Assembly: GCA_964489835.1 (NCBI GenBank)
Contig: CAZBBC010000008.1
Span: forward strand, 10,992-74,991
Reading direction: 5' to 3'
Length of the DNA stretch: 64,000 nt
From: an uncultured Calditrichota bacterium
GTDB taxonomy: Bacteria > Calditrichota > Calditrichia > JAJRVZ01
Position numbers and translations under genes: made by a program. Shown in pieces: positions 19,427 through 64,000 of this stretch. Position 1 is the first letter of the stretch. The number at the start of each line of letters is the position of its first letter. The notes beneath the pieces were generated by a model, which saw only the letters and a program-made list of their open reading frames with translations, had not been told where the DNA came from and made no database searches.

Positions 19427-21598
19427 TTATTTTTTATTATCCAAATCAGATTTTTCCCTTCGATTGTCTATATCCTTTTGTTCGCTTTCTGTTTTATCGT
19501 CAGGAGATTTTATACTTTTATCATTTTCCGGCTTTATAACTTTATTTATATTTTCTTTTTGTAACGTTGAAGATAGAGAGTCTACAGCCGGTTTTGGTGA
19601 AGACAAAGAATCCGCGGCCGCTGGTAGTGGTATATCTTCTTCGACAGGTGGTTCCTTTATCTTGTTCTTGGCAATCTTGCCAATTTCCGAACTAGGATAT
19701 TCTTTCGCTGCCAGGGTATAAGCATCAACAGCACCCTGAATATCCTGAATTTTCGTTTCATATATCCAGGCAATAACATATCTGGACTTCTGTGCGAGCA
19801 TACTGCCGGAATCCTCATTAGCTATCTGTCTGAAAATATCAATCGCTCCAAGATATTTCTCCTCCGAAATCAATTTTTCGCCTTGCAAAAAAAGATTTTT
19901 GTACGTTAATATTTCATCCTCGTCTTCGGTTGTATCCTCTTTTGGTCCAACTAAATAAGCGGCATATGGCGATTCCGGATAATCCAAGAGAATAATTTGT
20001 TTGATCGAATCAGCTTTGTCAAATAATTGCAGACCGTAATTATAAGTATAATAGAGAGAATAATACGCCTTGGGCACCAGAATCGAGTCGTTAGATGATT
20101 TGATGAATTTCTGATATGCTACTGCTGCACTGTCGTAATTAACAAGAGTGAGCAGGAAGAATTCAGCCATGGAAAACATGTTTTTCTTAAGAGATTTTTC
20201 TATATCAGCGGCAAATCTAATCACCGGCTTTTTAGCCGGCTTTGCTGTTTCTTTTCCTTTTATTTTTGTTTCATTTACAGCTTTCTCAAATTCAGATCTA
20301 TCAAATTCAACCGCATTAATTTCAGCTGTATCAATTTCAGCCGCATTAATTTCAGCTGCATTAAGTTCAGCTGCATTAATTTCAGCCGCATTAATTTCAG
20401 CTGCATTAATTTCAGCCGCATTAAGTTCAGCTGTATCAATTTCAGCGTATTCCAGCCCCAATGAATCAAAAGCGAGACTATCGGTATTAATTTTTTCCAA
20501 ATCGGCTAAATCACGTTCAATATTCGTCCTGATCTTCCGATACTTGTCTAAAATGCCCGCTCTTTTATCCGCCTCTTCTTTGAATTCTGTATCTCTGTAT
20601 TCCTTTCCGACCTTTTGATATAATTTTTTTGCAGAATCAATATTCACATAATAAAATTCCATTAACTTTGCCATCCCGTAAGCAGCAATAGCAGATCCTT
20701 CTGTTCGGGGATAGGTTTCCATTACTTCATTATAAACATCGGTCGCCTCGGGAATCTGATCTTTGATGACATAGATATCTCCAATCCGTGCATTGATCAG
20801 GGCTTTTTTATCTAAAAATTTACCTATTTGGGCAATTTCTTCGAGAATTGTTATTGCCCGGTCCTGTTCATCCAGTTCAATCAGGCAATCCACCTTTCTC
20901 ATGTTCGCGTCATAAAGTATTTCAACCGATGTATCAAATTCATTGACACCATCATATCTGGTCAGAGCCTCCGAATAATTCTGTTCATTATAATAGGTTT
21001 CTGCAATAAGGAATTGTGCTTTGGCTTCCAATTCCTCATTACTGGAATTCTCAATGATCTTATCAAATTGAACACGTGCATTTTTGTAGTCTTCATTTTT
21101 ATAATATATTCGTCCCAAATTATGATAGGCCTCAGCAGTCAAATCATCATCATCATCAGAAGAAATCACTCTGTTCAGGTATTCCAGCGCTTCATCATCC
21201 CGATCCATTTCTATCAATGCCATCGCTAACAATAAGTAAGCTTCAGTGATCCACTCACTATTTTTATATTTTGCATTAAACTGTAATAAATATCTTTCTG
21301 CTTTCGGGTACTCTTTAACCTGATAATAGCTCTTTCCAATCAGGAGCAACGCTTCATCCGCATAGCTACTACTATCACTGTAGATATTTATCAGCTTCCA
21401 GCATTTATCAATGGTTTTGTAAAAATCGTTGCGTATATCCGATGTGATTTCGCCATCCCGACTACTTTTTATTTTTTTAACACCTTCCTCATACTTTTCC
21501 TGGGCATTGAAAAGCGTATTATAGTAGGCACATCCAACGATCATCACCAAAGGCATTAAAAATAAATAAATTGTTTTTCGCATTCTCATCATGATCAA
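19427..21598 (-). CDS. TPR-repeat lipoprotein with an internal (N/D)(A/T)AE(I/L) pentapeptide tandem-repeat tract and a Lys/Asp/Pro-rich low-complexity C-terminus.
   Basis: Lipobox MIVGC. Multiple TPR-like helices (AEAYHNLGRIYYKNEDYKNA etc.). Central tract AEIDTAELNAAEINAAEINAAEINAAELNAAEINAAEIDTAEINAVEF. C-terminal PKPAVDSLSS...KSDLDNKK. Confidence 0.7.
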   Translation of the reverse strand: MIMMRMRKTIYLFLMPLVMIVGCAYYNTLFNAQEKYEEGVKKIKSSRDGEITSDIRNDFYKTIDKCWKLINIYSDSSSYADEALLLIGKSYYQVKEYPKAERYLLQFNAKYKNSEWITEAYLLLAMALIEMDRDDEALEYLNRVISSDDDDDLTAEAYHNLGRIYYKNEDYKNARVQFDKIIENSSNEELEAKAQFLIAETYYNEQNYSEALTRYDGVNEFDTSVEILYDANMRKVDCLIELDEQDRAITILEEIAQIGKFLDKKALINARIGDIYVIKDQIPEATDVYNEVMETYPRTEGSAIAAYGMAKLMEFYYVNIDSAKKLYQKVGKEYRDTEFKEEADKRAGILDKYRKIRTNIERDLADLEKINTDSLAFDSLGLEYAEIDTAELNAAEINAAEINAAEINAAELNAAEINAAEIDTAEINAVEFDRSEFEKAVNETKIKGKETAKPAKKPVIRFAADIEKSLKKNMFSMAEFFLLTLVNYDSAAVAYQKFIKSSNDSILVPKAYYSLYYTYNYGLQLFDKADSIKQIILLDYPESPYAAYLVGPKEDTTEDEDEILTYKNLFLQGEKLISEEKYLGAIDIFRQIANEDSGSMLAQKSRYVIAWIYETKIQDIQGAVDAYTLAAKEYPSSEIGKIAKNKIKEPPVEEDIPLPAAADSLSSPKPAVDSLSSTLQKENINKVIKPENDKSIKSPDDKTESEQKDIDNRREKSDLDNKK
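20296..20458. repeat. About 10-11 copies of a 15-bp tandem repeat (consensus TTCAGCYGCATTAAK) inside the TPR-lipoprotein gene.
   Basis: Read directly: ttcagccgcattaatttcagctgcattaagttcagctgcattaatttcagccgcattaatttcagctgcattaatttcagccgcattaag... The repeat is in frame and encodes the AEINA pentapeptide. Confidence 0.9.
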
Positions 21599-22826: not shown

Positions 22827-23777
22827 TCAAGCATAGAACCACAGCATGATATTCGGTAAAATGACCAGAATAGAAAAAGCCATTGCTGTAATATAACCAA
22901 TTTTAAATAAAGTGAGGGCTAAGTTTTTGTATTTTACCGGATTTGTAAAATTAGTCATCAGAGAGTACAATATGATGGATGCGACATTACAAAACACGGA
23001 ATAAAGAAATAAAAACATGAATATCCATCCAACATAGGCATAGGGCGCAGAGAAAAGTAAGATCCTGGCAGATATGTTTTCGTTCCAGCCAAATTTGTTT
23101 ATACCGCTGAGGATTGTAAAAATAATCGCCGCGATCAAGAGAAAAAGCAAGACAAGCCAATATTGTTGCAGGATTTTTACCGATCGTTTCAAAATATAAA
23201 AAACAAATAAGGTTGTAAGGCCCGTCAGTAGAATCATGATGATAACCATCAGCAGAACATAATTCTCAGTTAACAGCGTTTCTGTTTGAGCGGTATTGAA
23301 ATCTTTTAGTTTAAAAAAATGATAGTAGCCCTGAAAGTATAAGAGAAGTGTGAACAATATATCGGTAACTGCTACAAATTGTGTATAAAAAAATATCTTT
23401 TTAAAATAGGAAGTTCGATCCTCTAATTTAATTTCTTTTTTTATATGCAAAAAGAACCAAATTAAGGCCCAAAACAGCATAAAAATAAAATTCACGATAA
23501 GGAGATGTATCAATGAAGCAGGTATATAAGCAAAAGTTTTTATTTCTGCCGGAGCAATAATGAAATACAGAAATCTTACTAAAAATATTGTAACGATCAG
23601 GGCAACAACAAAATTATACCACAATTCCAAGCGTGCATTCTTTTTTCTGAATAATTCACCTTTATCCGCGCTTCTGATCATTAATAAATCTTTTAATGAT
23701 TCTGAGCCCAGGGATGAGAAAAAAATGATCAGTGCCAAGGAAAGAAAGGTGACGATCAATAAATATTCAAAAATCAA
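22827..23777 (-). CDS. Hypothetical polytopic integral membrane protein (about 8-9 TM).
   Basis: 316 aa, very hydrophobic, no recognisable family motif. Confidence 0.5.
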   Translation of the reverse strand: MIFEYLLIVTFLSLALIIFFSSLGSESLKDLLMIRSADKGELFRKKNARLELWYNFVVALIVTIFLVRFLYFIIAPAEIKTFAYIPASLIHLLIVNFIFMLFWALIWFFLHIKKEIKLEDRTSYFKKIFFYTQFVAVTDILFTLLLYFQGYYHFFKLKDFNTAQTETLLTENYVLLMVIIMILLTGLTTLFVFYILKRSVKILQQYWLVLLFLLIAAIIFTILSGINKFGWNENISARILLFSAPYAYVGWIFMFLFLYSVFCNVASIILYSLMTNFTNPVKYKNLALTLFKIGYITAMAFSILVILPNIMLWFYA

Positions 23778-23799
23778 ATGGAACCTCTGATTATGATTA

Positions 23800-23841
23800 G
23801 ATGTATACTTGATTTATTCAGATGTATACTTGATTTATTCA
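23800..23841. repeat. Perfect 21-bp tandem direct repeat (x2) immediately upstream of the membrane-protein gene.
   Basis: gatgtatacttgatttattca gatgtatacttgatttattca. Contains the GTATAC palindrome. Lies 23-64 bp upstream of the start codon at 23777 (minus strand). Confidence 0.85.
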
Positions 23842-23880
23842 AAGGAGGAGCCCATGCTGTCCCTCCAAAAGAACTAAAGT

Positions 23881-24000
23881 CCACGAATTACACGAATTAT
23901 ACAAGGATTTCACAAATTTTTGCTATATTATTCATGTCTTTTTTGTTGAATCCAAATAAAACAGTATTAATATATTATTTCTAATTCGTGTAATTCGTGG
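23881..24000. repeat. 120-bp MITE-like element bounded by a perfect 19-bp inverted repeat.
   Basis: ccacgaattacacgaatta ... 82 bp AT-rich ... taattcgtgtaattcgtgg. Same CACGAA/TTCGTG dyad theme as other elements. The track ORF 23778..23984 spans it and is likely spurious. Confidence 0.8.
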
Positions 24001-24049
24001 AAAAAACTCCACACCTGCCTCACATATTACAGTTTTACAAGATTAGCGA

Positions 24050-24730
24050 TCAATTTTGATTATTTATAAGAACCAATTGTGTTTCAGCATCTTTTACGCG
24101 ATTTTCAGTTTTTGCTTCTTCGGCCAGTTGTTGAAACAGGGATCGGGATTTATCTAAATCCCCTGTCTTTTTATACAAGAGTGCGGCAAGATAATAATAG
24201 TTATCCGATTCAGGAAATTGAGGTGCCAAATTTGCCGCCCGTTCATATAATTCGGCTGCTTCCACAAAATTTTTCGATTCCTCGTTGCAAGCGGCCAATC
24301 CGGCATAACCGGAAGCCAATAAAATATTACTACCGGAATAGGCATCGACAAACCGCCCAAAATAATCACGAGCCTGATCATATTTTTTCTGCTGGAATAA
24401 TATATTTGCCATTAAAAACATGGCCTGATCGGCAGCATCTGTACCATCATATTCATCAATTAATTTAATCAGCCGTTCACTTGCTTTTGGAAGGTTCCCG
24501 TTGGCAAATTCAATTTCGGCAATACCCAATTGTGAATTGGCTTCTATATCGGTTTGCTGAGAATTGTAATAATAGAAAATTCCTATAACAATAACAACGC
24601 CTGCAATGACCACTGCTCGCATTATTGTTGGGTAATTTTCATCGATATACGATTTTGTCTGCAGAGAAAATTTTACAAATTTATCTTCCTTCAGATCCTG
24701 TTTTCTGATATTTTTCTTTGGTTTTAACAT
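24050..24730 (-). CDS. Membrane-anchored TPR-like protein (YfgM/YbgF-like).
   Basis: N-terminal basic segment plus one TM (AVVIAGVVIVIGIFYYY), followed by TPR-like helices (QAMFLMANILFQQKKYDQARDYF; AAELYERAANLAP). Confidence 0.55.
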   Translation of the reverse strand: MLKPKKNIRKQDLKEDKFVKFSLQTKSYIDENYPTIMRAVVIAGVVIVIGIFYYYNSQQTDIEANSQLGIAEIEFANGNLPKASERLIKLIDEYDGTDAADQAMFLMANILFQQKKYDQARDYFGRFVDAYSGSNILLASGYAGLAACNEESKNFVEAAELYERAANLAPQFPESDNYYYLAALLYKKTGDLDKSRSLFQQLAEEAKTENRVKDAETQLVLINNQN

Positions 24731-25098
24731 CCTGTCTCCTATTTAAATTAATATTTTTACGTTTTAATTCCTGAATACTACACCGGGCATGGCACGCCGT
24801 GCCCCTCGTTGAGGGAAATCCCAAATCACAAGCACCAAATCCCAAATAATTCCCAATAACCAATCCCCCGATAAGAGATGTCGTCCTCAGACGACTTACC
24901 GGACCTAAATCATGCATGATATAGCAAATTCCTATTCTGAAATCCTGGATGATTTCATCCCGATCATGCCAGTAGGTGGATTCGCCCGCTGTGAATTTGT
25001 TGCCCGGAGGGAATCGTTATCATCGGGGCTAGTTCCCAGTTCCGAGTTCCAAGTTCCAAATATTTGTTTTTTTACTTCCCACTTCCTACTTTAACTGA

Positions 25099-25174
25099 GG
25101 TACCCCAGGAGAGATTCGAACTCCCGACACATGGCTTAGGAAGCCACTGCTCTATCCTGCTGAGCTACTGGGGC
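25099..25174 (-). tRNA. tRNA-Arg (anticodon CCT).
   Basis: Reverse complement reads GCCCCAGTAGCTCAGCAGGATAGAGCAGTGGCTTCCTAAGCCATGTGTCGGGAGTTCGAATCTCTCCTGGGGTACC. 7-bp acceptor stem, D-arm GCTC/GAGC, anticodon loop TTCCTAA, T-arm GGGAG-TTCGAAT-CTCTC. CC of the CCA is encoded. Confidence 0.8.
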
Positions 25175-25242
25175 GAAAAAACAATTTTAAATTATAAATT
25201 GTAAATTTTCAATCACCACTGATCGAAGCCTGTCCCAATGTG

Positions 25243-25283
25243 ACCAAAAACTTTAATTTTGCTATCACTCTGAGGATCCCGAC
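25243..25283 (-). other. Degenerate tRNA-like fragment (5-prime acceptor/D-arm start plus T-arm-like hairpin) upstream of tRNA-Arg.
   Basis: Reverse complement GCCCCGGTAGCTCATCCCTGACTTTGTCGGGATCCTCAG begins like the tRNA-Arg 5-prime end (GCCCCAGTAGCTCAGC) and shares TGTCGGGA with its T-arm, but lacks the anticodon arm and 3-prime acceptor strand. Confidence 0.3.
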
Positions 25284-25613
25284 AAAGTCAGGGATGAGCT
25301 ACCGGGGCAAAAATTAACAATTATTAATTTATTAAAAATAAACTCTTAAGGCAAGGAATGAGAAGGGCTAATATCATATGAAGGAAAGAAATAAAACGGA
25401 GACCGGAGGCCGGATACCGGTAACCGGAAAACTTTCAATGCTATGCCCGGTTCAGGCGGATTCGCACGCCAATTGGCGCATTTTCAACCTACTGGCGAAT
25501 TTCATTTGTCATTGTGGCTTGGGAATTGTGATTTTATTATATCCTGCCCGGCTATTAATAGTTTGCTCGAAACAAAGATGGGTATTTTGTTATGTTATGG
25601 CAGATAATAAGAA

Positions 25614-25739
25614 TTAAGCAGGATCGTAACCTCTTCTTCTGTACTCGGTATCGTTCCGATGAGCTTTTCTCCTCTCACCAATCTTTAACTTACCTCGGAC
25701 TACCTTAGCGAAAGTACGTTTTATTGTTTGGCTAAGCAT
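25614..25739 (-). CDS. Possible small (41-aa) highly basic protein. Hypothetical.
   Basis: Internal ATG of track ORF 25614..25841, preceded by AGGAAAAAATATG. Product MLSQTIKRTFAKVVRGKLKIGERRKAHRNDTEYRRRGYDPA is very Lys/Arg-rich, with no family recognised. Confidence 0.2.
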   Translation of the reverse strand: MLSQTIKRTFAKVVRGKLKIGERRKAHRNDTEYRRRGYDPA

Positions 25740-25928
25740 ATTTTTTCCTTTATGATTAGTGACTGATAGTGACAGAGTGAATAAATTCTTATATGTGTAG
25801 ATAATTCCCCATAAGCTAATTGTGATAAGTACAAATGGCAAGGGATTTTAAAAATCATTTCGATGTTTGATTTAATAAATAAAAATTTATTTTTTCTTTG
25901 CAGTTAGCCGGCGCTGCGAGACAACATT

Positions 25929-27020
25929 TTACCGAAGGAGTATCATTTTCTTTCCATCCTGAAATTCACCAGCCTCAATCCTGTACAGGTAAACGCCACT
26001 TGCGAGATTGCTCCCATCAAACGTATAGGTATGATTTCCCGCCTGTAGTTTCTTATTCACAAGTGAAGCAATTTCTCCTCCAAGAATGTTGTAGATCTTG
26101 AGAGTAAGAAAAACTGACTGGGGTAATGTGAATTCGATAGTGGTTGTTGAATTGAATGGATTTGGGTAGTTCTTTTCTAAAAAATAGATTTCAGGATTAT
26201 GATCATTCGATTGGATACTCAAAGGTGAAGGGCTGCCTGCATTTTCCCATGCTGTTCTCCAGAGACTGGCAAGATCTAATATTGCTTTTTGAATAGAAAC
26301 TGTTGTTAAATGTTCAAGATCTTGCCATAAAATATTATAATAAGTTATATTGAAAGTGGGATCCTGAGCGCTGGCAAGATCATCTGCAATCATAATACTA
26401 TCCACATAGGGATAAATTTCTTCAATATGTAAAAAAACAGTATCAATAACATTTGACCAGTATTTTCCTGTGCCTGTTGCTAAGGGTAGTTGTGAAAGAT
26501 GTGGATTTATCATCTGTGTTTCATATCGTGAATGAATACCATCATTTCCTGTGTGTTGCCCATTATAATTTAAAGTCAGATGCAATGGCTGGTGAGAATC
26601 TGCCACATAATGTCCCAGTTCAGCTGCAATTTGCCAAACATCATCCCATTGACCAGCTGCCATTAATGTGCTTAAACTATCTGTCCACTCTTCAATAATC
26701 CAGGGGATAATGCCGTTATTTTGAACAATTGAAAGGTCGTAAAGCGTTATTAAACTATCCAAATTATGCGGAAGAGTCCCGGTAAAAAATTCCGGATAAT
26801 AATCAATATCAATATAATGATAGTATCCCGGTAATGGATCGGTATCCGGATCGACCGAATGTTGTTGCAGATAATTTCGATGATCCTGAAAAAACGACAT
26901 TTCAGTAGGTAGATAATCTACCGCATGTTCATTTATATAACCATGTGTATCCCATCCCCATTTTTTATTTTGGGCCAATAGTGAGGAACATACCATGAGA
27001 CTTATTAAAAAGTATTTCAC
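25929..27020 (-). CDS. Secreted S1/P1-nuclease / zinc phospholipase-C-superfamily-like protein with type IX secretion (T9SS) C-terminal sorting domain.
   Basis: Signal peptide. N-terminal WGWDTHGYINEHAVDYL resembles the Zn-binding start of P1 nuclease/PLC. C-terminal about 80 aa NYPNPFNSTTTIEFTLPQSVFLTLKIYNILGGEIASLVNKKLQAGNHTYTFDGSNLASGVYLYRIEAGEFQDGKKMILLR is a typical Por_Secre_tail. Confidence 0.7.
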   Translation of the reverse strand: MKYFLISLMVCSSLLAQNKKWGWDTHGYINEHAVDYLPTEMSFFQDHRNYLQQHSVDPDTDPLPGYYHYIDIDYYPEFFTGTLPHNLDSLITLYDLSIVQNNGIIPWIIEEWTDSLSTLMAAGQWDDVWQIAAELGHYVADSHQPLHLTLNYNGQHTGNDGIHSRYETQMINPHLSQLPLATGTGKYWSNVIDTVFLHIEEIYPYVDSIMIADDLASAQDPTFNITYYNILWQDLEHLTTVSIQKAILDLASLWRTAWENAGSPSPLSIQSNDHNPEIYFLEKNYPNPFNSTTTIEFTLPQSVFLTLKIYNILGGEIASLVNKKLQAGNHTYTFDGSNLASGVYLYRIEAGEFQDGKKMILLR

Positions 27021-27239
27021 AATATTTTATCTTTATAATAAATTTTTACTATTCCTGATTTTCGATGGTTCAATTACAATGTGAATCTTATAAGATAAAC
27101 AGCAATTTAACTTTTATTCAAATTTAAATAAATAGAAGTACCGTAAAAAATTACAGGGATTTCCTATTCCAGGTAATAGACGCGATAAAAAGAAAAGTGC
27201 TATTAATTATTTTACTAAAGTCATTGAATTAATAAATCA

Positions 27240-27400
27240 GTTAACCTGGTTAATTCATGAATTTTAAATTCATCAAGTAGCGACAGTAAAATCTCCCCTT
27301 AAAAAAGGGATTAAGGGATTGTAAAATTTCGATTATCCTATAACCTTTTTTGATAGACAACCCCCCGCCCCCTTTTCTAAGGGGGAGTTAAATAATTGAT
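27240..27400. repeat. Intergenic repeat modules of family C (inverted orientation) with a poly-C/poly-G hairpin.
   Basis: ttaattcatgaattttaaattcatcaagtagcgacagtaaaatctccccttaaaa is the reverse complement of the 18700-18740 / 61681-61735 module. ccccccgcccccttttctaagggggag matches 41540-41570. Confidence 0.6.
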
Positions 27401-27661
27401 TTCATGGAAGTTATTGAATCTGACCTTAAGATTTGTGAATAATTCAGGTTAATTGATTTACATTATAATATAAAAAGGTATTGGAATACAGTAAAAATAA
27501 TCGAAATACGCCCATATTTTAGTTCTAAGAGGCTAAAATAGGTGGTGGGAGTATTATATATATATTTATAATCTTGTGTGCATTCTGAGAGAGGTGGTGC
27601 TAATAGCATAATAGGAGGAATAGATCAGATCTTACGGTTATAACTTGTAATTAAGGATAAT

Positions 27662-28681
27662 TCATTTAGCGTCAAAGCATACCACCTTAGCCAGCTGACT
27701 TTTTCCGGGCATTGATATCATTATTTTATTCTCGGTAAATTGAATCACCCGCCAATTATTCGGATCACTACTAAAACCGCCGGTCTCACATTGAACAATT
27801 TTATGCCCGGAAGGAAAATCTATTTGCTCGATAACATTTTTGTGACCATGACCAACAAAAATCGCTTTAATGGTAGTATTCTCGTTGAGTACCTTGAGCA
27901 AACCCTTCGAACAACTCTCTGCATCCGGCCAGTCTAAATCATTTGATTTAAAATAAATGCCATCACCGTTTTTATCGCCAACGGGTAGATAAATATGCAT
28001 ATAAATAACAATCGGTTGGTTACCGGCATCTTTGACCTGATGAACTAACCAGTCCATCTGGGATTTATCGATTTTTCTGGCATCATCATGCAGGCTATAG
28101 CCATTATCGAGGAAAATAAAACGATATTTCGTGGTTCCAACCCCGAAATCACGGGAATAGTAAGTACCATTCTGAAAGCAAGGGATGTTTCGTATCCAGG
28201 TCGCCCGGGCTTTGTTTGCATTTAGCTGAGAATGGGTATATATCTTGGTCGAATCATCCTCATCAACCCAATAACTATTAATATCATGATTTCCCAGAGT
28301 CATATATATTGGAACGGGACAAAAATTATATAGAGGATAAAATTGTTCGATTTGGGTTGCCAGAAAACCACCACCGGATGTTTTTGCTTCATAAAAATCA
28401 ACGATATCCCCTGTCAGGATGACAGCATCGGCCTCTTGACTATCAGGAATGGTGTTAAAAAATGTGATTAGTGGCTTCGTCCCGTCACCATAGTGTTGCC
28501 TGGCATCGATAAATTCGGGTTGATAATTGTTCAGGTTACAAATGTGTGTATCGGTGATATGTAATATTTTCAGAGTATCGGAGGCGTTCTGTCCAAATCC
28601 GGCTGAGAAACATAACAAATTTGATATCAGTACCCAATGCCAATAATATATTCCCTGTGATAAATATTTGTGACGCTCCAT
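27662..28681 (-). CDS. Calcineurin-like metallophosphoesterase, secreted.
   Basis: LHITDTH, GDIVD, GNHD, GHGH metallophosphatase motifs, with N-terminal signal. Confidence 0.8.
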   Translation of the reverse strand: MERHKYLSQGIYYWHWVLISNLLCFSAGFGQNASDTLKILHITDTHICNLNNYQPEFIDARQHYGDGTKPLITFFNTIPDSQEADAVILTGDIVDFYEAKTSGGGFLATQIEQFYPLYNFCPVPIYMTLGNHDINSYWVDEDDSTKIYTHSQLNANKARATWIRNIPCFQNGTYYSRDFGVGTTKYRFIFLDNGYSLHDDARKIDKSQMDWLVHQVKDAGNQPIVIYMHIYLPVGDKNGDGIYFKSNDLDWPDAESCSKGLLKVLNENTTIKAIFVGHGHKNVIEQIDFPSGHKIVQCETGGFSSDPNNWRVIQFTENKIMISMPGKSQLAKVVCFDAK

Positions 28682-28869
28682 TATATCTCCTTCCCGTAAT
28701 TAAATTCTAATAAATATTTTTTGCATTTCTGTTCTACATTTTTATTTATTTGAAACAGATTGATTGACTACCTAATGCTATCTTTGATTTTTATCTGTTA
28801 GAATGCGCGGTTCCGTTTGTTTTCCTTATTATTTAATCCTTTACTTTAAGTTTTCCCCATGTGTCAAGG

Positions 28870-29781
28870 TCAGGAAAGGAGCAGAATGCCTCGCGGACAT
28901 GGGTCGGGATTTTTTGAGCAATCGAGTCGCGGCAGCATTTGGCCATTTTGCGGCATTGAGCAGAAGTGAGAATACCAGATTCCTGACTTTCCTTGCCCTC
29001 TTTTTACTTCGTGAGGAAGATGACCGTCGCTGGACAGTTGGGTATCAATAAAGTACTTCCATCTATCGACACACTTTTGAAAAAGTTTTTCATCTTTCAA
29101 ATATACAGCACATGATGTCGAAAGGACCAAACCCCAATTGCCCCAATTATTCTTACTGTCCATCGTACTCATCGGAAGCGCATTGTATCGCAAGAATGCA
29201 GAGAACTGACGCTGTTGATCTTCCGGCCACACATCCTCGTCTCTAAGTAAATCCGCAGCGAATATTAATGAAGGAATATGATAACTAAAGGAAAGAGTAG
29301 AATCGTCCTCCCGACTCCAGGTTTTTATCTTTGTCGCCCAGGCATTAATGATTTTTACTGCCGCAAACGCATATTTTTCTTGCCCTGTTACTCTATAATA
29401 AAGTGACAAAGCGTAGGCAGCATTTGCATCATCCTGCAAACCATTCTTTGCTTTCCTATGCCCATCAGCATCATTGTAGTATCCGGGCACATACCATTTA
29501 TCCGGTACTACAGGAACACGATCGAGGTTGTTATCTGCCTCCATTTGGAGTGATTGAAATGCTGTATATTTAAACTTTTTTCCCTCAATAGCCTCCTTCA
29601 ATTCCTTGATTGTAGAATCGGATATGAAGATACAATGGTAAGAGTCAGTCTTAGATACGGTTCCATGCACATCAGAATGTGAAAATAAAGCAAATAGAAC
29701 AATGTGAATAACAACAAATGCATATATTCTCGGTGTAAACCTCATAAACATTTCCTTTTTTAAGCTATTTCCATGGTTCAA
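28870..29781 (-). CDS. Secreted polysaccharide-lyase-like protein (alginate-lyase superfamily?). The C-terminus is possibly disrupted.
   Basis: Signal peptide at internal Met (MRFTPRIYAFVVIHIVLFALFS). alpha/alpha-toroid-like helices with NNWGNWGLV and WYSHF. The last 30 aa (PRLDCSKNPDPCPRGILLLS) look non-native, suggesting a possible frameshift. Confidence 0.35.
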   Translation of the reverse strand: MNHGNSLKKEMFMRFTPRIYAFVVIHIVLFALFSHSDVHGTVSKTDSYHCIFISDSTIKELKEAIEGKKFKYTAFQSLQMEADNNLDRVPVVPDKWYVPGYYNDADGHRKAKNGLQDDANAAYALSLYYRVTGQEKYAFAAVKIINAWATKIKTWSREDDSTLSFSYHIPSLIFAADLLRDEDVWPEDQQRQFSAFLRYNALPMSTMDSKNNWGNWGLVLSTSCAVYLKDEKLFQKCVDRWKYFIDTQLSSDGHLPHEVKRGQGKSGIWYSHFCSMPQNGQMLPRLDCSKNPDPCPRGILLLS

Positions 29782-30326
29782 TGGCTCAATTGGCAGCCGA
29801 TGAATTTAAATCCCCGTCGAGAATACATTTACCACTCAACCGTCATAGAATCCAATCGTAACACCGTATAAAATATTTTTTTACCAGTTGTCCAGAGCCA
29901 TTCTCTCATTTTCCACAGTGATTGTTTGCGTTGAAAAGACTTCTTCAGGATTCTTCAGTACAAAATCAAGTTGTAAGAGAGCGTATAGCAGGTAAATGCC
30001 TCTTTCCAATCCGATTTAATTAGAGATCTTCGATTTTCGATTGCAAATATGCACGTGATTTATATTTTTATATAGGTAGTGGCCTTGCTTATAATATTTC
30101 GTCCCTACCGGGACTGTTGAATATTGTATTATAAGATTGCAATAAATATTTTGTCTCTAACGGGACAGATATATCTTGTAATTTACCTCGAATATTCCTT
30201 ATGTTTAACGACAGGGATGCGTTACCGGCCACAAAACTTTGAGAACCTATGGACTTTATATAAAATCACATGCAAGGTTGCTGGGTCTACTGGCAAAATA
30301 TTAAGATTTGATCAGGTATATAATAT

Positions 30327-30360
30327 AAAAAAAAAGGGATGCGTAAGCATCCCTTTTTAT
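30327..30360. terminator. Rho-independent terminator (bidirectional A-run / hairpin / T-run) downstream of the FadL-like gene.
   Basis: aaaaaaaaa GGGATGC gtaa GCATCCC ttttt. Confidence 0.65.
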
Positions 30361-30374
30361 TGGTTTTACAAATA

Positions 30375-33124: not shown

Positions 33125-33240
33125 TATTTTAGTTTTAATCCGTGTTAATTCGTGTCAGTCTTCGCCTGATCCGGCGTAGACGGATAATCCGTGGACAAAT
33201 TCTTTTTTTGATTGCAGCCAACGGCTGCGGTATGAATAAT
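33125..33240. repeat. Family A miniature intergenic repeat element (forward orientation).
   Basis: ttttaatccgtgttaattcgtgtcagtcttcgcctgatccggcgtagacggataatccgtggacaaattctttttttgattgcagccaacggctgcggtatgaata is near-identical to 61762-61868, and inverted to 54508-54615. Confidence 0.85.
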
Positions 33241-35928: not shown

Positions 35929-36267
35929 AACCCTATGTTATAATATTTATCCGGAAACCTTGCAATTTATATATAACTCTATAATCATTCAACCTTATAT
36001 CAGAAAAAGTAAGCGGTAAAATATAAGTGACTAGAGTTAAAAGTGAACAAAAGTGACTAAAGTGTGTCATTCACCTCTCGCGGAGACGCTGAGACGCAAG
36101 GATTTGAATTTAAAGGATTTATGTCAGAACACCTTAACTATTTATTATATTGCTTTCCCGACATGTCGGGACTCGCAATGACGCTTCCATGATTGTCATT
36201 TCGAGGAGTGAAGAATAAACGACCATGAAATCTTTTGTATTTTTTCTTTTGTATTTTGTATTATTTC

Positions 36268-43511: not shown

Positions 43512-43711
43512 ATAGTTCTCACTTTTTTATTTAGAGTAAACTGCAATCAGAAACCAGAAAGCTGAATGACGAAAGCAGAAATCCGTAAGCTAAAAACCGA
43601 AATCCTAACTGCTTACTGCCTTCTGCTCTCGGCTTTCTTACTTCCTACTTCTTACTTATAGTTTCTGCCTATAGTTTCTGCCTATGGCGATATGAAAACC
43701 CCGGTCAATCT

Positions 43712-54507: not shown

Positions 54508-54700
54508 ATTCATACCGCAGCATATTGCTGCAATCAAAGAAAAAAATAGTCCACGGATTATCCGTCTACGCCGGATCAGGCGAAGACTGACACGAATTAG
54601 CACGGATTAAAACTAAAATAATATTAATTTTTATTTAAAATCTGTGTCAATCCGTGAAATCTGTGGATAAAAAACGCTGCGCCGCTTTGAGAGACGAATT
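54508..54700. repeat. Family A repeat element (inverted orientation) plus adjacent CGTG-dyad module.
   Basis: 54508-54615 is the reverse complement of 33131-33236 (cataccgcagcatattgctgcaatcaaag...gtccacggattatccgtctacgccggatcaggcgaagactgacacgaattagcacggattaaaac), followed by tctgtgtcaatccgtgaaatctgtggat. Confidence 0.85.
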
Positions 54701-58764: not shown

Positions 58765-58890
58765 AGAGACACGGAGACGCAGCGTTTTTTGTCCACGGAT
58801 TATCCGGCTTCGACGAAAAATCTGTTAATCAATTCGTGAAATTCGTGGATATATTTCTCTGCGGCTTTGCGGCTCTGCGAGAGATAGTAT
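58765..58890. repeat. Partial family A repeat (inverted) with CGTG dyad.
   Basis: cacggagacgcagcgttttttgtccacggattatccggcttcgacgaaaaatctgttaatcaattcgtgaaattcgtggat. The first part also resembles 36075 (cggagacgctgagacgc). Confidence 0.7.
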
Positions 58891-61480: not shown

Positions 61481-61870
61481 AGCAAAAATTTTAAAAACTT
61501 TTATCCACGGATTTCACGGATTTTATTTAGCCTGAATTATTCATAAAATTAAATATTTAAGTCTATAAATAACCTAAAATCAATGAGTTAATTCCCCCTT
61601 AATAAAGGGGGTTAGGGGGATGTTTTAAACGTAATATTTTAAATTATATCAATGTTTTACAACCCCTTAGTCCCCTTTTTTTTAAGGGAAGACTTAATTG
61701 TCGCTATATGATAGATCTAAAATTCATGAATTAATCAGGTTAGAAATAATATTTATTTTAATTTTAATCCGTGCAAATCAGTGTCAGCCAATCACTTGAT
61801 CCGGCTTCGACGGATAATCCGTGGACAAAATCTTTTTTTTATCGCAGCATCGCTGCGTTATGTATTTATC
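61481..61870. repeat. Mosaic of all three repeat families in one spacer.
   Basis: ttatccacggatttcacggatt (CGTG dyad). aattcccccttaataaagggggttagggggat (family C). ttttaagggaagacttaattgtcgctatatgatagatctaaaattcatgaatta (family C module). 61762-61868 is a full family A copy (ttttaatccgtgcaaatcagtgtcagcc...cgacggataatccgtggacaaaatcttttttttatcgcagcatcgctgcgttatg). Confidence 0.85.
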
Positions 61871-63792: not shown

Positions 63793-63830
63793 CGTTTTCC
63801 TCCGCTATTTTATTATTGACTTGATCTATT

Positions 63831-64000
63831 TATAAACCACGAAGCACACTAAGGACACGAAGTTAAAAAACAATTAAGAATTTAGAATTATAAATTTGAA
63901 CAAGAAGTAATAGGCGCTAACGTTATGTCATTAATATCTTCACATTCTTAATTCGTAATTTTTAATTCTTAATTTCGAGAAGACCTTCGTGTGCTTCGTG
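63831..64000. repeat. MITE-like element with CACGAAG terminal inverted repeats (may continue past window end).
   Basis: tataaaccacgaagcacactaaggacacgaagtt ... AT-rich interior ... gaagaccttcgtgtgcttcgtg. Left end is near-identical to 50621-50650. Confidence 0.75.

Follow-up and report, generated by a model that had tools for sequence, protein, structure and literature searches.

The 64-kb stretch of DNA analyzed here (the window; G+C content of about 37%) comes from a Calditrichia bacterium. Between two protein-coding genes it contains a spacer, the island, that holds a tRNA-Arg(CCT) gene and, in front of it, a partial copy of the tRNA 5′ end in which a small two-hairpin element, here called E, is lodged. 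The intact tRNA gene lies on the minus strand at 25099–25174, as had been stated in an earlier note on this DNA, and was recognized by ARAGORN and by Rfam (RF00005, 63.7 bits); it is the only tRNA gene within the window. The island is flanked on the left by a gene encoding a 226-aa membrane-anchored tetratricopeptide repeat (TPR) protein (24050–24730, minus strand), and on the right by a gene for a Zn-phospholipase C/S1-P1-like protein with a sorting tail of the type IX secretion system (T9SS) (25929–27020, minus strand). Integration of mobile DNA at tRNA genes is well known, and the textbook cases involve the 3′ end of the tRNA and an integrase.

The locus was compared with loci of relatives, designated here by L numbers and sampled at about 12 kb per genome (about 1 Mb in total), the window providing 64 kb of its own genome. 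Homologs of the TPR gene assign the window to Calditrichia. Since all of the fetched loci carry the TPR gene on the plus strand, the window was read as its reverse complement. In 16 of the 19 closest loci scanned (Calditrichota and Neomarinimicrobiota), tRNA-Arg(CCT) is found directly upstream of the TPR gene and in the same orientation; therefore, the tRNA–TPR pair represents an old, conserved neighborhood. The distance between both genes is 368 nucleotides (nt) in the window and 23–363 nt in these relatives, and in the loci of Ignavibacteriota and Bacteroidota a tRNA-Arg(CCG) gene occupies the corresponding site. The nearest relative is L120, whose TPR protein is 93% identical to that of the window; at four-fold degenerate sites, 126 of 174 positions (72%) are identical between the two.

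The orphaned tRNA 5′ end and its promoter

We observed that the first 14 nt of the tRNA recur, with 13 matching positions, at 25295–25308 on the minus strand (GCCCCGGTAGCTCA). The match covers 17 of 19 positions when 25295–25313 is compared with 25161–25179, and a wider similarity between 25161–25198 and 25295–25335 (83% over 41 nt) takes in the sequence just upstream of the tRNA, the direct repeat comprising tRNA nt 1–14 and about 24 nt of upstream sequence. The degenerate copy of the tRNA 5′ end announced in the earlier note is thus real, but it had been placed at 25243–25283, which is the position of the hairpin element. A second tRNA or a tmRNA was not detected in this region: ARAGORN reported one gene, and an Rfam search (cmscan, E-values up to 10, 24500–26100) gave one tRNA match. 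This check had been proposed in the earlier note, and its outcome, a single tRNA and no other Rfam match, is the one described there as unfavorable to its reading of the island. We also discarded the possibility that the fragment is itself a second tRNA or a tRNA pseudogene, given that no cloverleaf was found and that only nt 1–14 and, weakly, nt 18–31 are present.

Upstream of the fragment lies a block (25309–25357, minus strand) that, to judge by its sequence, would be the ancestral σ70-type promoter of the tRNA, with TTGCCT (25354–25349) as −35 box, a 17-nt spacer, and TAAATT (25331–25326) as −10 box. Its sequence CTTGCCTT, followed by TA.ATT.A, is invariant in 15 loci (alignment A10), and 43 of 47 positions are identical between the window and L120, versus 72% at four-fold degenerate sites. 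Both in the window and in L120, the fragment starts exactly 47 nt past the start of this block. The same 47 nt separate the block start from tRNA +1 in four loci that have no insert (L085, L086, L087, and L121), and the distance is 45–46 nt in three others without an insert (L006, L094, and L005). Because the promoter spacing falls within the range of these seven insert-free relatives, the fragment occupies the former start of the tRNA, the intact gene being displaced to a position 134 nt downstream of the fragment. It thus represents the original 5′ end in what looks like a partial duplication, in tandem, of the initial third of the tRNA. The comparison of synteny suggested in the earlier note proved informative, as relatives differ at exactly the fragment site, where they carry 0, 1, or 2 units.

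In the direction of the tRNA, the fragment is followed by the two hairpins of E (H1 and then H2), the motif GGGACAGG with a D-arm remnant, a partial second −10 region, and the tRNA. The remnant (25216–25230, minus strand) resembles the D-arm in its 3′ half together with the beginning of the anticodon stem, approximately tRNA nt 18–31 (GGCTTCGATCAGTGG versus GGATAGAGCAGTGG in the tRNA; alignment A4); it is weak in the window and clearer in relatives (GGATGCGAGCAGTGGC in L123, GGATAGAGCAGT in L120, and GCGAGAAGTGGC in L003). Next to the tRNA, a promoter-like stretch (25175–25212, minus strand) composed of TTGAAA (25212–25207), 17 nt, and TAAAAT (25189–25184) reached 10 of 12 matches in a promoter scan of the window. 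Part of the ancestral −10 region is repeated within this stretch, which also overlaps an AT-rich array of heptad repeats (25183–25207) detected by Tandem Repeats Finder (TRF). L120 does not have it, and its unit ends ...AGTAATTGTTT directly at the tRNA; by eye, no promoter-like sequence is visible between the L120 units and the tRNA, the promoter scan having covered the window only. If no promoter lies nearer to the tRNA of L120, its units must be co-transcribed with it.

The hairpin element E and its relatives

E occupies the D-loop position of the partial tRNA copy and has a length of about 63–64 nt. In the window, it consists of a degenerate copy of the long hairpin H2 (25234–25275) and of the short hairpin H1 (25277–25294), whose minus strand reads TCCCTGAC-TTT-GTCGGGA. 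A covariance model of H2, named R1, matched 25230–25287 with 57.3 bits (E-value of 8.6e−11), its sole match in the window; with nhmmer, likewise, only the island copy was significant, and the other window matches had E-values ≥ 0.7. Neither plasmids nor viral contigs gave a match to E. Folding of the window copy does not surpass that of shuffled sequences (z = −0.5 and −1.0 as DNA, and 0.0 as RNA), and the fragment together with E is identical to L120 at 71 of 81 positions, as compared with 72% at four-fold degenerate sites (p = 6e−4). This copy is a decaying relic, and its value thus lies in pointing to the E family. The foldable hairpin singled out in the earlier note is H1, which is conserved across the copies, even though the window copy of E is degenerate. 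The resemblance to a T-arm that had been noticed there comes down to the heptamer GTCGGGA and obtains no support from the relatives; the derivation of H1 from the T-arm was rejected, as only this 7-nt word is common to both and E is inverted in other phyla.

The number of units varies among relatives. L120 has two nearly identical units of exactly 98 nt each, L123 (Calditrichia) has one of 122 nt, and the window has one; in L003 only part of H2 is left, and L090 retains a degenerate 5′ piece and H1. The four loci L085, L086, L087, and L121 have no units, and L088, L122, L126, and L127 carry other leader inserts of 58–125 nt. On the TPR protein tree, insert-bearing and insert-free loci are interspersed. 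E has tRNA nt 1–15 at one flank and GGAT(A/GC)GAGCAGT(GGC) at the opposite flank in both L123 and L120.

When the loci were checked for extra tRNA 5′ ends, two orphan GCGCCCGTAGCTCAG pieces were found before the tRNA-Arg(CCG) of L031, a metagenome-assembled genome (MAG) of the Bacteroidota. Each of them is followed by GTCCCAAAATGAC...GTCATTTTGAGGATC and a CCCG...CGGG hairpin, a module that is the reverse complement of the H2–H1 module of Calditrichia (GTCCCAAAGTGAC...GTCACTTTGAGGATCCCGGCAAAGTCGGGA in L120). Inverted copies of E located after GCGCCCGTAG(CTCAG) fragments of tRNA-Arg(CCG) are present in L031 (two), L038 (two), L072, L023, and L043, all of them MAGs of Bacteroidota or Ignavibacteriota. 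The L031 units measure 174 and 131 nt and each has its own copy of the promoter-proximal sequence; those of L038 are two of about 120 nt. Every tandem unit of L120, L031, and L038 begins with tRNA nt 1–10 to 1–15. The search with R1 in the loci and the window recovered 12 copies from eight loci: the window, L120 (two), L123, L031 (two), L038 (two), L072, L023, and L043 (two). All 12 adjoin a tRNA-Arg gene, 11 of them within about 320 nt on its 5′ side and the twelfth, in L043, immediately 3′ of the tRNA.

The module spans 60–90 nt, with the conserved motifs T(C/T)CC...TTGAG(A/G)ATCCCG...CGGGA, and H2 has a stem of 13 bp with a conserved bulged A (TTTG-A-GG) and an interior of 17–35 nt. In the MAFFT alignment (A6), both partners are altered in six of the 13 pairs, and one-sided changes are absent. 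In the alignment to the model (A9), two-sided changes affect eight of the 13 pairs (23 cells); controls in which the partner was slid by 1–3 columns yielded 0–3 pairs of this kind. Of the A9 cells, 95.6% are paired, and not a single G–U pair occurs among 135 stem cells. H1 is found in all copies as an ATCCCG-stem-loop-CGGGA with Watson–Crick changes in its distal pairs. The two units of L038 are old and diverged, and both preserve their stems by compensatory changes. Compared with shuffled sequences, folding was far more favorable in L043 (z = −5.8 and −6.0), L123 (−4.3), L120 (−3.3), and L031 (−3.2).

Searches with Rfam 15 at the gathering threshold and with permissive E-values (window, L031, and L120) returned only the tRNA and the chance-level matches Spy490380c, dinG, and MIR6217, all far below their thresholds. 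A coding function was rejected: a GTG-started plus-strand ORF (MTKNFNFAITLRIP...) spans E in the window and in L120, but its start is lost in L123 and a stop follows after two codons in L031. Neither is E an intrinsic terminator or attenuator, because its T tract pairs with an A tract, these positions covary between A–U and G–C, and the terminator scan does not report it.

Other inserts were observed at the same place. A different conserved leader segment, CGATCCAG ... TTTTATAYAGG ... GGCAAC, lies between the promoter and the tRNA or unit in L123 (2020–2165) and L126 (1620–1740), which belong to clade D. The Bacteroidia MAG L070 (5457–5914) has, after the ancestral promoter, nt 1–28 of tRNA-Arg(CCG), a 49-nt palindrome, tRNA nt 28–37, an ORF of 96 aa for a GIY-YIG nuclease (PF01541, E-value of 5e−16), and finally the complete tRNA. 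The tRNA 5′ end is orphaned here as well, by an insertion of another kind. Literature searches on tRNA 5′ partial duplications, on GIY-YIG with tRNA, and on tRNA-Arg repeats found nothing relevant.

Interpretation of E and comparison with known systems

We propose that E matters as DNA, in the form of a single-strand hairpin or a cruciform, because it occurs in both orientations relative to the tRNA with covariation in each group, because its pairing is strictly Watson–Crick, and because one copy lies downstream of the tRNA. E could therefore be a DNA-level hairpin element comparable to repetitive extragenic palindromic (REP) sequences, palindrome-associated transposable elements (PATE), and integron attC sites, strongly biased toward tRNA-Arg gene ends; this is the reading we favor, and we hold it with confidence and doubt in about equal measure. 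The scattered presence of E among close relatives and its tandem arrays are consistent with an element that is gained, lost, and amplified.

Under this proposal, a partial duplicate of the initial third of the tRNA, arranged in tandem ahead of the functional gene, would harbor E, and the duplicated promoter and 5′ piece would keep an essential tRNA gene intact and expressed. The tRNA-Arg(CCT) gene, alone of its kind in 64 kb, may be single-copy and essential, so only insertions that leave an intact, promoted copy would survive; this would account for the constant association of E with a duplicated promoter-proximal 5′ end. The direct repeats (the −10 region and tRNA nt 1–15) would allow the number of units to shift among 0, 1, and 2 by unequal or slipped recombination, and loss through them would restore a clean junction between promoter and tRNA. 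In the window, the unit would now be a leader of 134 nt that separates the tRNA from its ancestral promoter, presumably transcribed and removed by RNase P, and the new σ70-like site beside the tRNA may drive the gene directly, bypassing the leader. By analogy, the duplicate promoter and 5′ end carried by E would mirror the tRNA 3′ end that integrases carry.

Several observations weigh against this proposal. No transposase, recombinase, or REP-associated tyrosine transposase (RAYT) was seen, so the case for mobility comes from the distribution of E. Within the sampled loci and the window, E was found only beside tRNA-Arg and not dispersed as REP sequences, miniature inverted-repeat transposable elements (MITE), or PATE usually are. 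Vertical inheritance with repeated precise loss accounts for the patchy distribution equally well as repeated gain. The covariation and the lack of G–U pairs are drawn from 12 copies at eight loci, and A9 was fitted to model R1. Moreover, three transitions in the H2 stem of the window all give G–U pairs in RNA of the tRNA sense, which hints at an RNA-level constraint in this lineage (n = 3, chance probability of about 0.13).

This last point touches on the main rival, according to which E and the tRNA 5′ piece form a structured RNA domain of the tRNA-Arg precursor, either a cis-acting element for processing or stability or a leader-derived small RNA (sRNA) released by RNase P. Its analogs would be the rtT RNA of the tyrT repeats or sRNAs derived from spacers, and we consider this rival rather unlikely, albeit the most serious of the alternatives. 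The units sit between a conserved promoter and the tRNA, those of L120 being presumably transcribed if no promoter is nearer, and those of L031 each having promoter-proximal sequence of their own; nevertheless, one copy in L043 lies 3′ of the tRNA, and sister lineages lack E altogether. The hairpins covary, yet they do so in each group although their orientation to the tRNA in Calditrichia is opposite to that in Bacteroidota and Ignavibacteriota. The L120 units fold well as RNA (z = −3.3) and the three transitions in the window produce G–U pairs in the sense strand, whereas G–U pairs are absent from the 135 stem cells of the family alignment, no Rfam family is matched, and the window copy is degenerate though its tRNA is intact. 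The structured RNA that the earlier note had offered as one explanation is accordingly retained in part: its hairpins belong to a conserved, covarying structure, but this structure is not derived from the tRNA, both its orientations and its exclusively Watson–Crick pairing favor DNA, and the copy in the window has degenerated.

A neutral slipped-strand duplication of the tRNA 5′ region, with a filler that is palindromic by accident and drifts to extinction, appears improbable. The surrounding spacer is full of heptad repeats of the slippage type, the number of units varies as that of tandem repeats would, and the window copy folds like shuffled sequence, so that this explanation may hold for the decayed window copy alone. 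At the family level it is contradicted, since the module recurs with its conserved motifs in Calditrichota, Bacteroidota, and Ignavibacteriota, eight of the 13 stem pairs are compensated, both diverged paralogs of L038 retain the structure, and the fragment with E is conserved above the level of four-fold degenerate sites.

A classical integrase scar, in which the tRNA would have served as attachment (att) site and the fragment would be the displaced att repeat of a lost element, is largely refuted and close to excluded: such events typically leave a truncated tRNA copy next to the complete gene, about 5 kb of accessory genes were added upstream of the tRNA promoter with respect to the ancestral gene order, and L070 has a GIY-YIG gene between a 5′ tRNA fragment and the intact tRNA, but the repeat consists of the 5′ end and the promoter −10 region and not of the 3′ end, only about 120 nt separate the repeats, the accessory block lies outside them and upstream of an intact ancestral promoter, the units form tandem arrays, and lineages that have reached saturation at neutral sites share the insert, conserved and covarying. 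As the earlier note had reported, there is no integrase: domains of integrases, recombinases, or transposases were absent (Pfam and NCBIfam) from the longest non-overlapping ORFs of at least 150 aa in the region of about 12–37 kb, which includes 10 kb on either side. Of the decayed integration scar considered there, an insertion and a decaying copy are indeed present; however, the 5′ and not the 3′ end is involved, about 120 nt are inserted, a recombinase is lacking, and the unit has been kept by compensatory changes across distant lineages.

The E module matches no Rfam family, and the known systems closest to it are REP, PATE, and attC elements, the tyrT repeats, and the att sites of integrases. 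The tyrT operon of E. coli, with its rtT (rttR) RNA, resembles the loci described here in having tandem repeat units attached to a tRNA gene, each of them holding part of it. The tyrT units lie downstream of the tRNA and carry its 3′ end; in contrast, E units are upstream, with the tRNA 5′ end and part of the promoter, and hold a covarying two-hairpin module common to several phyla. The Rfam rtT model gave no match (E-values up to 10 in the window region and up to 5 in L031 and L120). The rtT RNA is an example of a tRNA-linked, repeat-derived RNA (PMC3318445).

Our preferred reading of E as a DNA-level element draws on its likeness to REP and REPIN sequences and to the IS200/IS605-derived PATE, mobilized by HUH Y1 transposases. 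All are short non-coding imperfect palindromes with stems held by strictly complementary changes, found in either orientation and in copy numbers that differ among close relatives. However, REP, REPIN, and PATE copies number tens to hundreds and are dispersed, whereas all 12 copies of E in about 1 Mb are at tRNA-Arg, and a duplication of target sequence accompanies E but not those elements; no Y1 HUH transposase (RAYT or TnpA) was found within the 64-kb window. With integron attC sites, E shares a long imperfect hairpin, a conserved base, an extrahelical base, a variable terminal structure (17–35 nt in E), and tandem arrays of short units, and a single-strand DNA form like theirs would explain its Watson–Crick-only covariation. 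Unlike them, E lacks the core sites RYYYAAC and GTTRRRY and has T(C/T)CCAAA and TTTGAGGA (TTTG(A)GGA; alignments A5 to A7) instead; intI and cassette ORFs are absent, and E is tied to a tRNA gene. The att sites of integrases also combine a partial tRNA copy, an intact tRNA, and a variable region beside it. In their case, the duplicated part is the 3′ one and the repeats enclose kilobases of cargo including the integrase, whereas here the 5′ part is duplicated, the insert has 98–134 nt in Calditrichia (131–174 nt in L031), and an integrase is missing.

The element stands out as a tiny ORF-less insert in the D-loop position of a 5′ partial tRNA copy, in three phyla and in both orientations, always by a tRNA-Arg locus. 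We suggest, with reservations that outweigh our confidence, that E represents either an undescribed class of hairpins acting as single-stranded DNA, specific for tRNA-Arg gene ends across the Fibrobacterota–Chlorobiota–Bacteroidota (FCB) superphylum and surviving by traveling with, or inducing, the duplicate of the promoter and 5′ end, or else a new family of structured RNAs in tRNA-Arg precursors. A mobile E would constitute a new way of targeting an essential gene while the host survives, and E as an RNA would be a new family linked to tRNA precursors. In addition, E units are likely to mislead tRNA-based island finders, for which the 5′ fragment is readable as an att site.

Other features of the island and its surroundings

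Besides the AT-rich array mentioned above, three heptad arrays were found in the island by TRF. One with CCGG (25397–25428; period 7, 4.6 copies) lies upstream of the promoter and is partly conserved in L120, which has a second array of this kind at 420–456. Another, GGAACTN (25031–25059; 4.1 copies, also detected by pattern search), lies 40 nt downstream of the tRNA, where L120 has a different one (GGTATAG/A); the third is AAATCCC/GGGATTT (24816–24847). The short-period repeats described in the earlier note are therefore present as these four period-7 arrays, with a lag-7 autocorrelation of z = 6.0 relative to shuffled sequence for the island and 4.4–4.5 for each half. Its fourfold AGTTCC at 25040–25065 is a true repeat that corresponds to the 7-bp GGAACTN array at 25031–25059. 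The repeated 16-nt word GGATTCGC (14 of 16 positions matching) does not exceed chance, as an estimated 0.3 pairs or so are expected in 1.4 kb, and it is absent from L120. A further word, TTGGGATTTG, is not enriched in the window (10 matches versus 10.5 expected), and words like it occur in L120 upstream of the promoter.

Strong heptad periodicity was detected in four of the 22 window spacers of at least 200 nt, namely the island and those at 43512–43711 (z = 7.5), 35929–36267 (z = 2.9), and 63793–64000 (z = 2.8). It is therefore a habit of the non-coding DNA of this genome, concentrated in the island but not peculiar to it. With this spread, and with the tRNA as the only Rfam match, the idea of a cluster of regulatory or small-RNA elements lost its support. 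Heptad tandem repeats seem to occur genome-wide in non-coding DNA, reminiscent of the short tandemly repeated repetitive (STRR) sequences of cyanobacteria. Even between the window and L120, the arrays differ in sequence and position, and we read them as microsatellite-like, fast-evolving spacer DNA and not as parts of the E unit.

The GC palindrome and the small hairpin of the earlier note are both present. The former is a GC-rich dyad (GGGCATGGCACGCCGTGCCC, 24785–24804, the whole feature spanning 24784–24805) located 54–75 nt upstream of the TPR start codon. Its consensus, GGGGCAYGGCGTG(C/A)C(A/G)TGCCCG, has a single occurrence in the window and two in L120 (1180–1201 and 1227–1248), where it forms a perfect 9-bp dyad and has a looser third copy, always between the tRNA and the TPR gene. 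We discarded it as a dispersed REP-like repeat, since it was found here and in L120 and nowhere else in the window or the loci. This dyad, which is not part of the E unit and belongs to fast-evolving spacer, may be a terminator-like or protein-binding palindrome before the TPR gene. The small hairpin (GTCGTCCTCAGACGAC, 24880–24895, minus strand, where it reads GTCGTCTGAGGACGAC) is terminator-like with a poor T tail. It was the one site reported by the terminator scan, versus 1.2 expected by chance, and is not conserved in L120. The spacer between tRNA and TPR gene cannot be aligned with that of L120 except for the GC dyad and the final 60 nt before the TPR start, and as a candidate structured RNA it was rejected (fold z = 0.08).

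A micro-ORF of 41 aa with a very basic product (MLSQTIKRTFAKVVRGKLKIGERRKAHRNDTEYRRRGYDPA) lies upstream of the promoter, on the minus strand at 25617–25739 (25614–25739 with the stop codon), preceded by AAAGGA, which resembles a ribosome-binding site. Its homologs have 40–41 aa, share 57–83% identity and an invariant pattern, and all end in YDP(A/V); a gene call of 63 aa reaches 88%. The family is small, with four clusters in a set of 1.8 billion representatives; Pfam and NCBIfam gave no match, and neither L120 nor any other fetched locus carries the ORF. To judge by this conservation, it is probably a real micro-protein gene; therefore, the island is gene-poor, as had been noted, but not entirely gene-free. 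A plus-strand ORF of 79 aa (25378–25617) was rejected because its ATG is lost in L120.

With regard to the neighboring genes, the ancestral order comprises a CsgG-like gene, a gene for a BamG/PorV-like outer-membrane protein, a terminator, the promoter, tRNA-Arg, the TPR gene, and a gene for a 316-aa membrane protein. The order CsgG-like, outer-membrane protein, tRNA-Arg, and TPR was seen in L121, L122, L123, and L127, and the outer-membrane protein of the window shares 49% identity with that of L121. The window has about 5 kb extra (25360–30374) between the gene for this protein and the tRNA promoter, with alginate-lyase-like, metallophosphatase, and T9SS-tailed Zn-phospholipase C/S1-P1-like genes, long AT-rich spacers, and no mobility gene. 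The block is variable, is not enclosed by the tRNA repeats, and should be considered apart from the tRNA fragment.

L120 (1–420) and the window (25929–26348) encode different proteins upstream of the tRNA that have in common only the T9SS C-terminal sorting domain, which suggests that T9SS cargo was swapped by recombination at this domain. An exact-protein look-up of the T9SS gene product for strain variants gave no record. The only public contigs identical to the region, L001 and L002 (window 23009–25449 and 22984–24963), are short, and both terminate inside the island, at 25449 and 24963; repeat-caused assembly trouble or strain variation may be responsible, and low coverage could equally account for it.

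The 9-mer TAAT(T/C)CGTG appears in the window as tandem doublets at 23882–23899, 23982–23999, 33136–33193, 54552–54609, 58830–58847, and 61765–61823. One pair of doublets is inverted, 100 nt apart, and the 9-mer has 31 matches with up to one mismatch versus 21.5 expected. To judge by their position, the sites are mostly intergenic, and they could represent a dispersed regulatory site or a small repeat. Finally, a 15-bp repeat of 8.9 copies (20313–20446) lies in frame within the gene for a 723-aa TPR protein and encodes (A-A-E-I/L-N)n.

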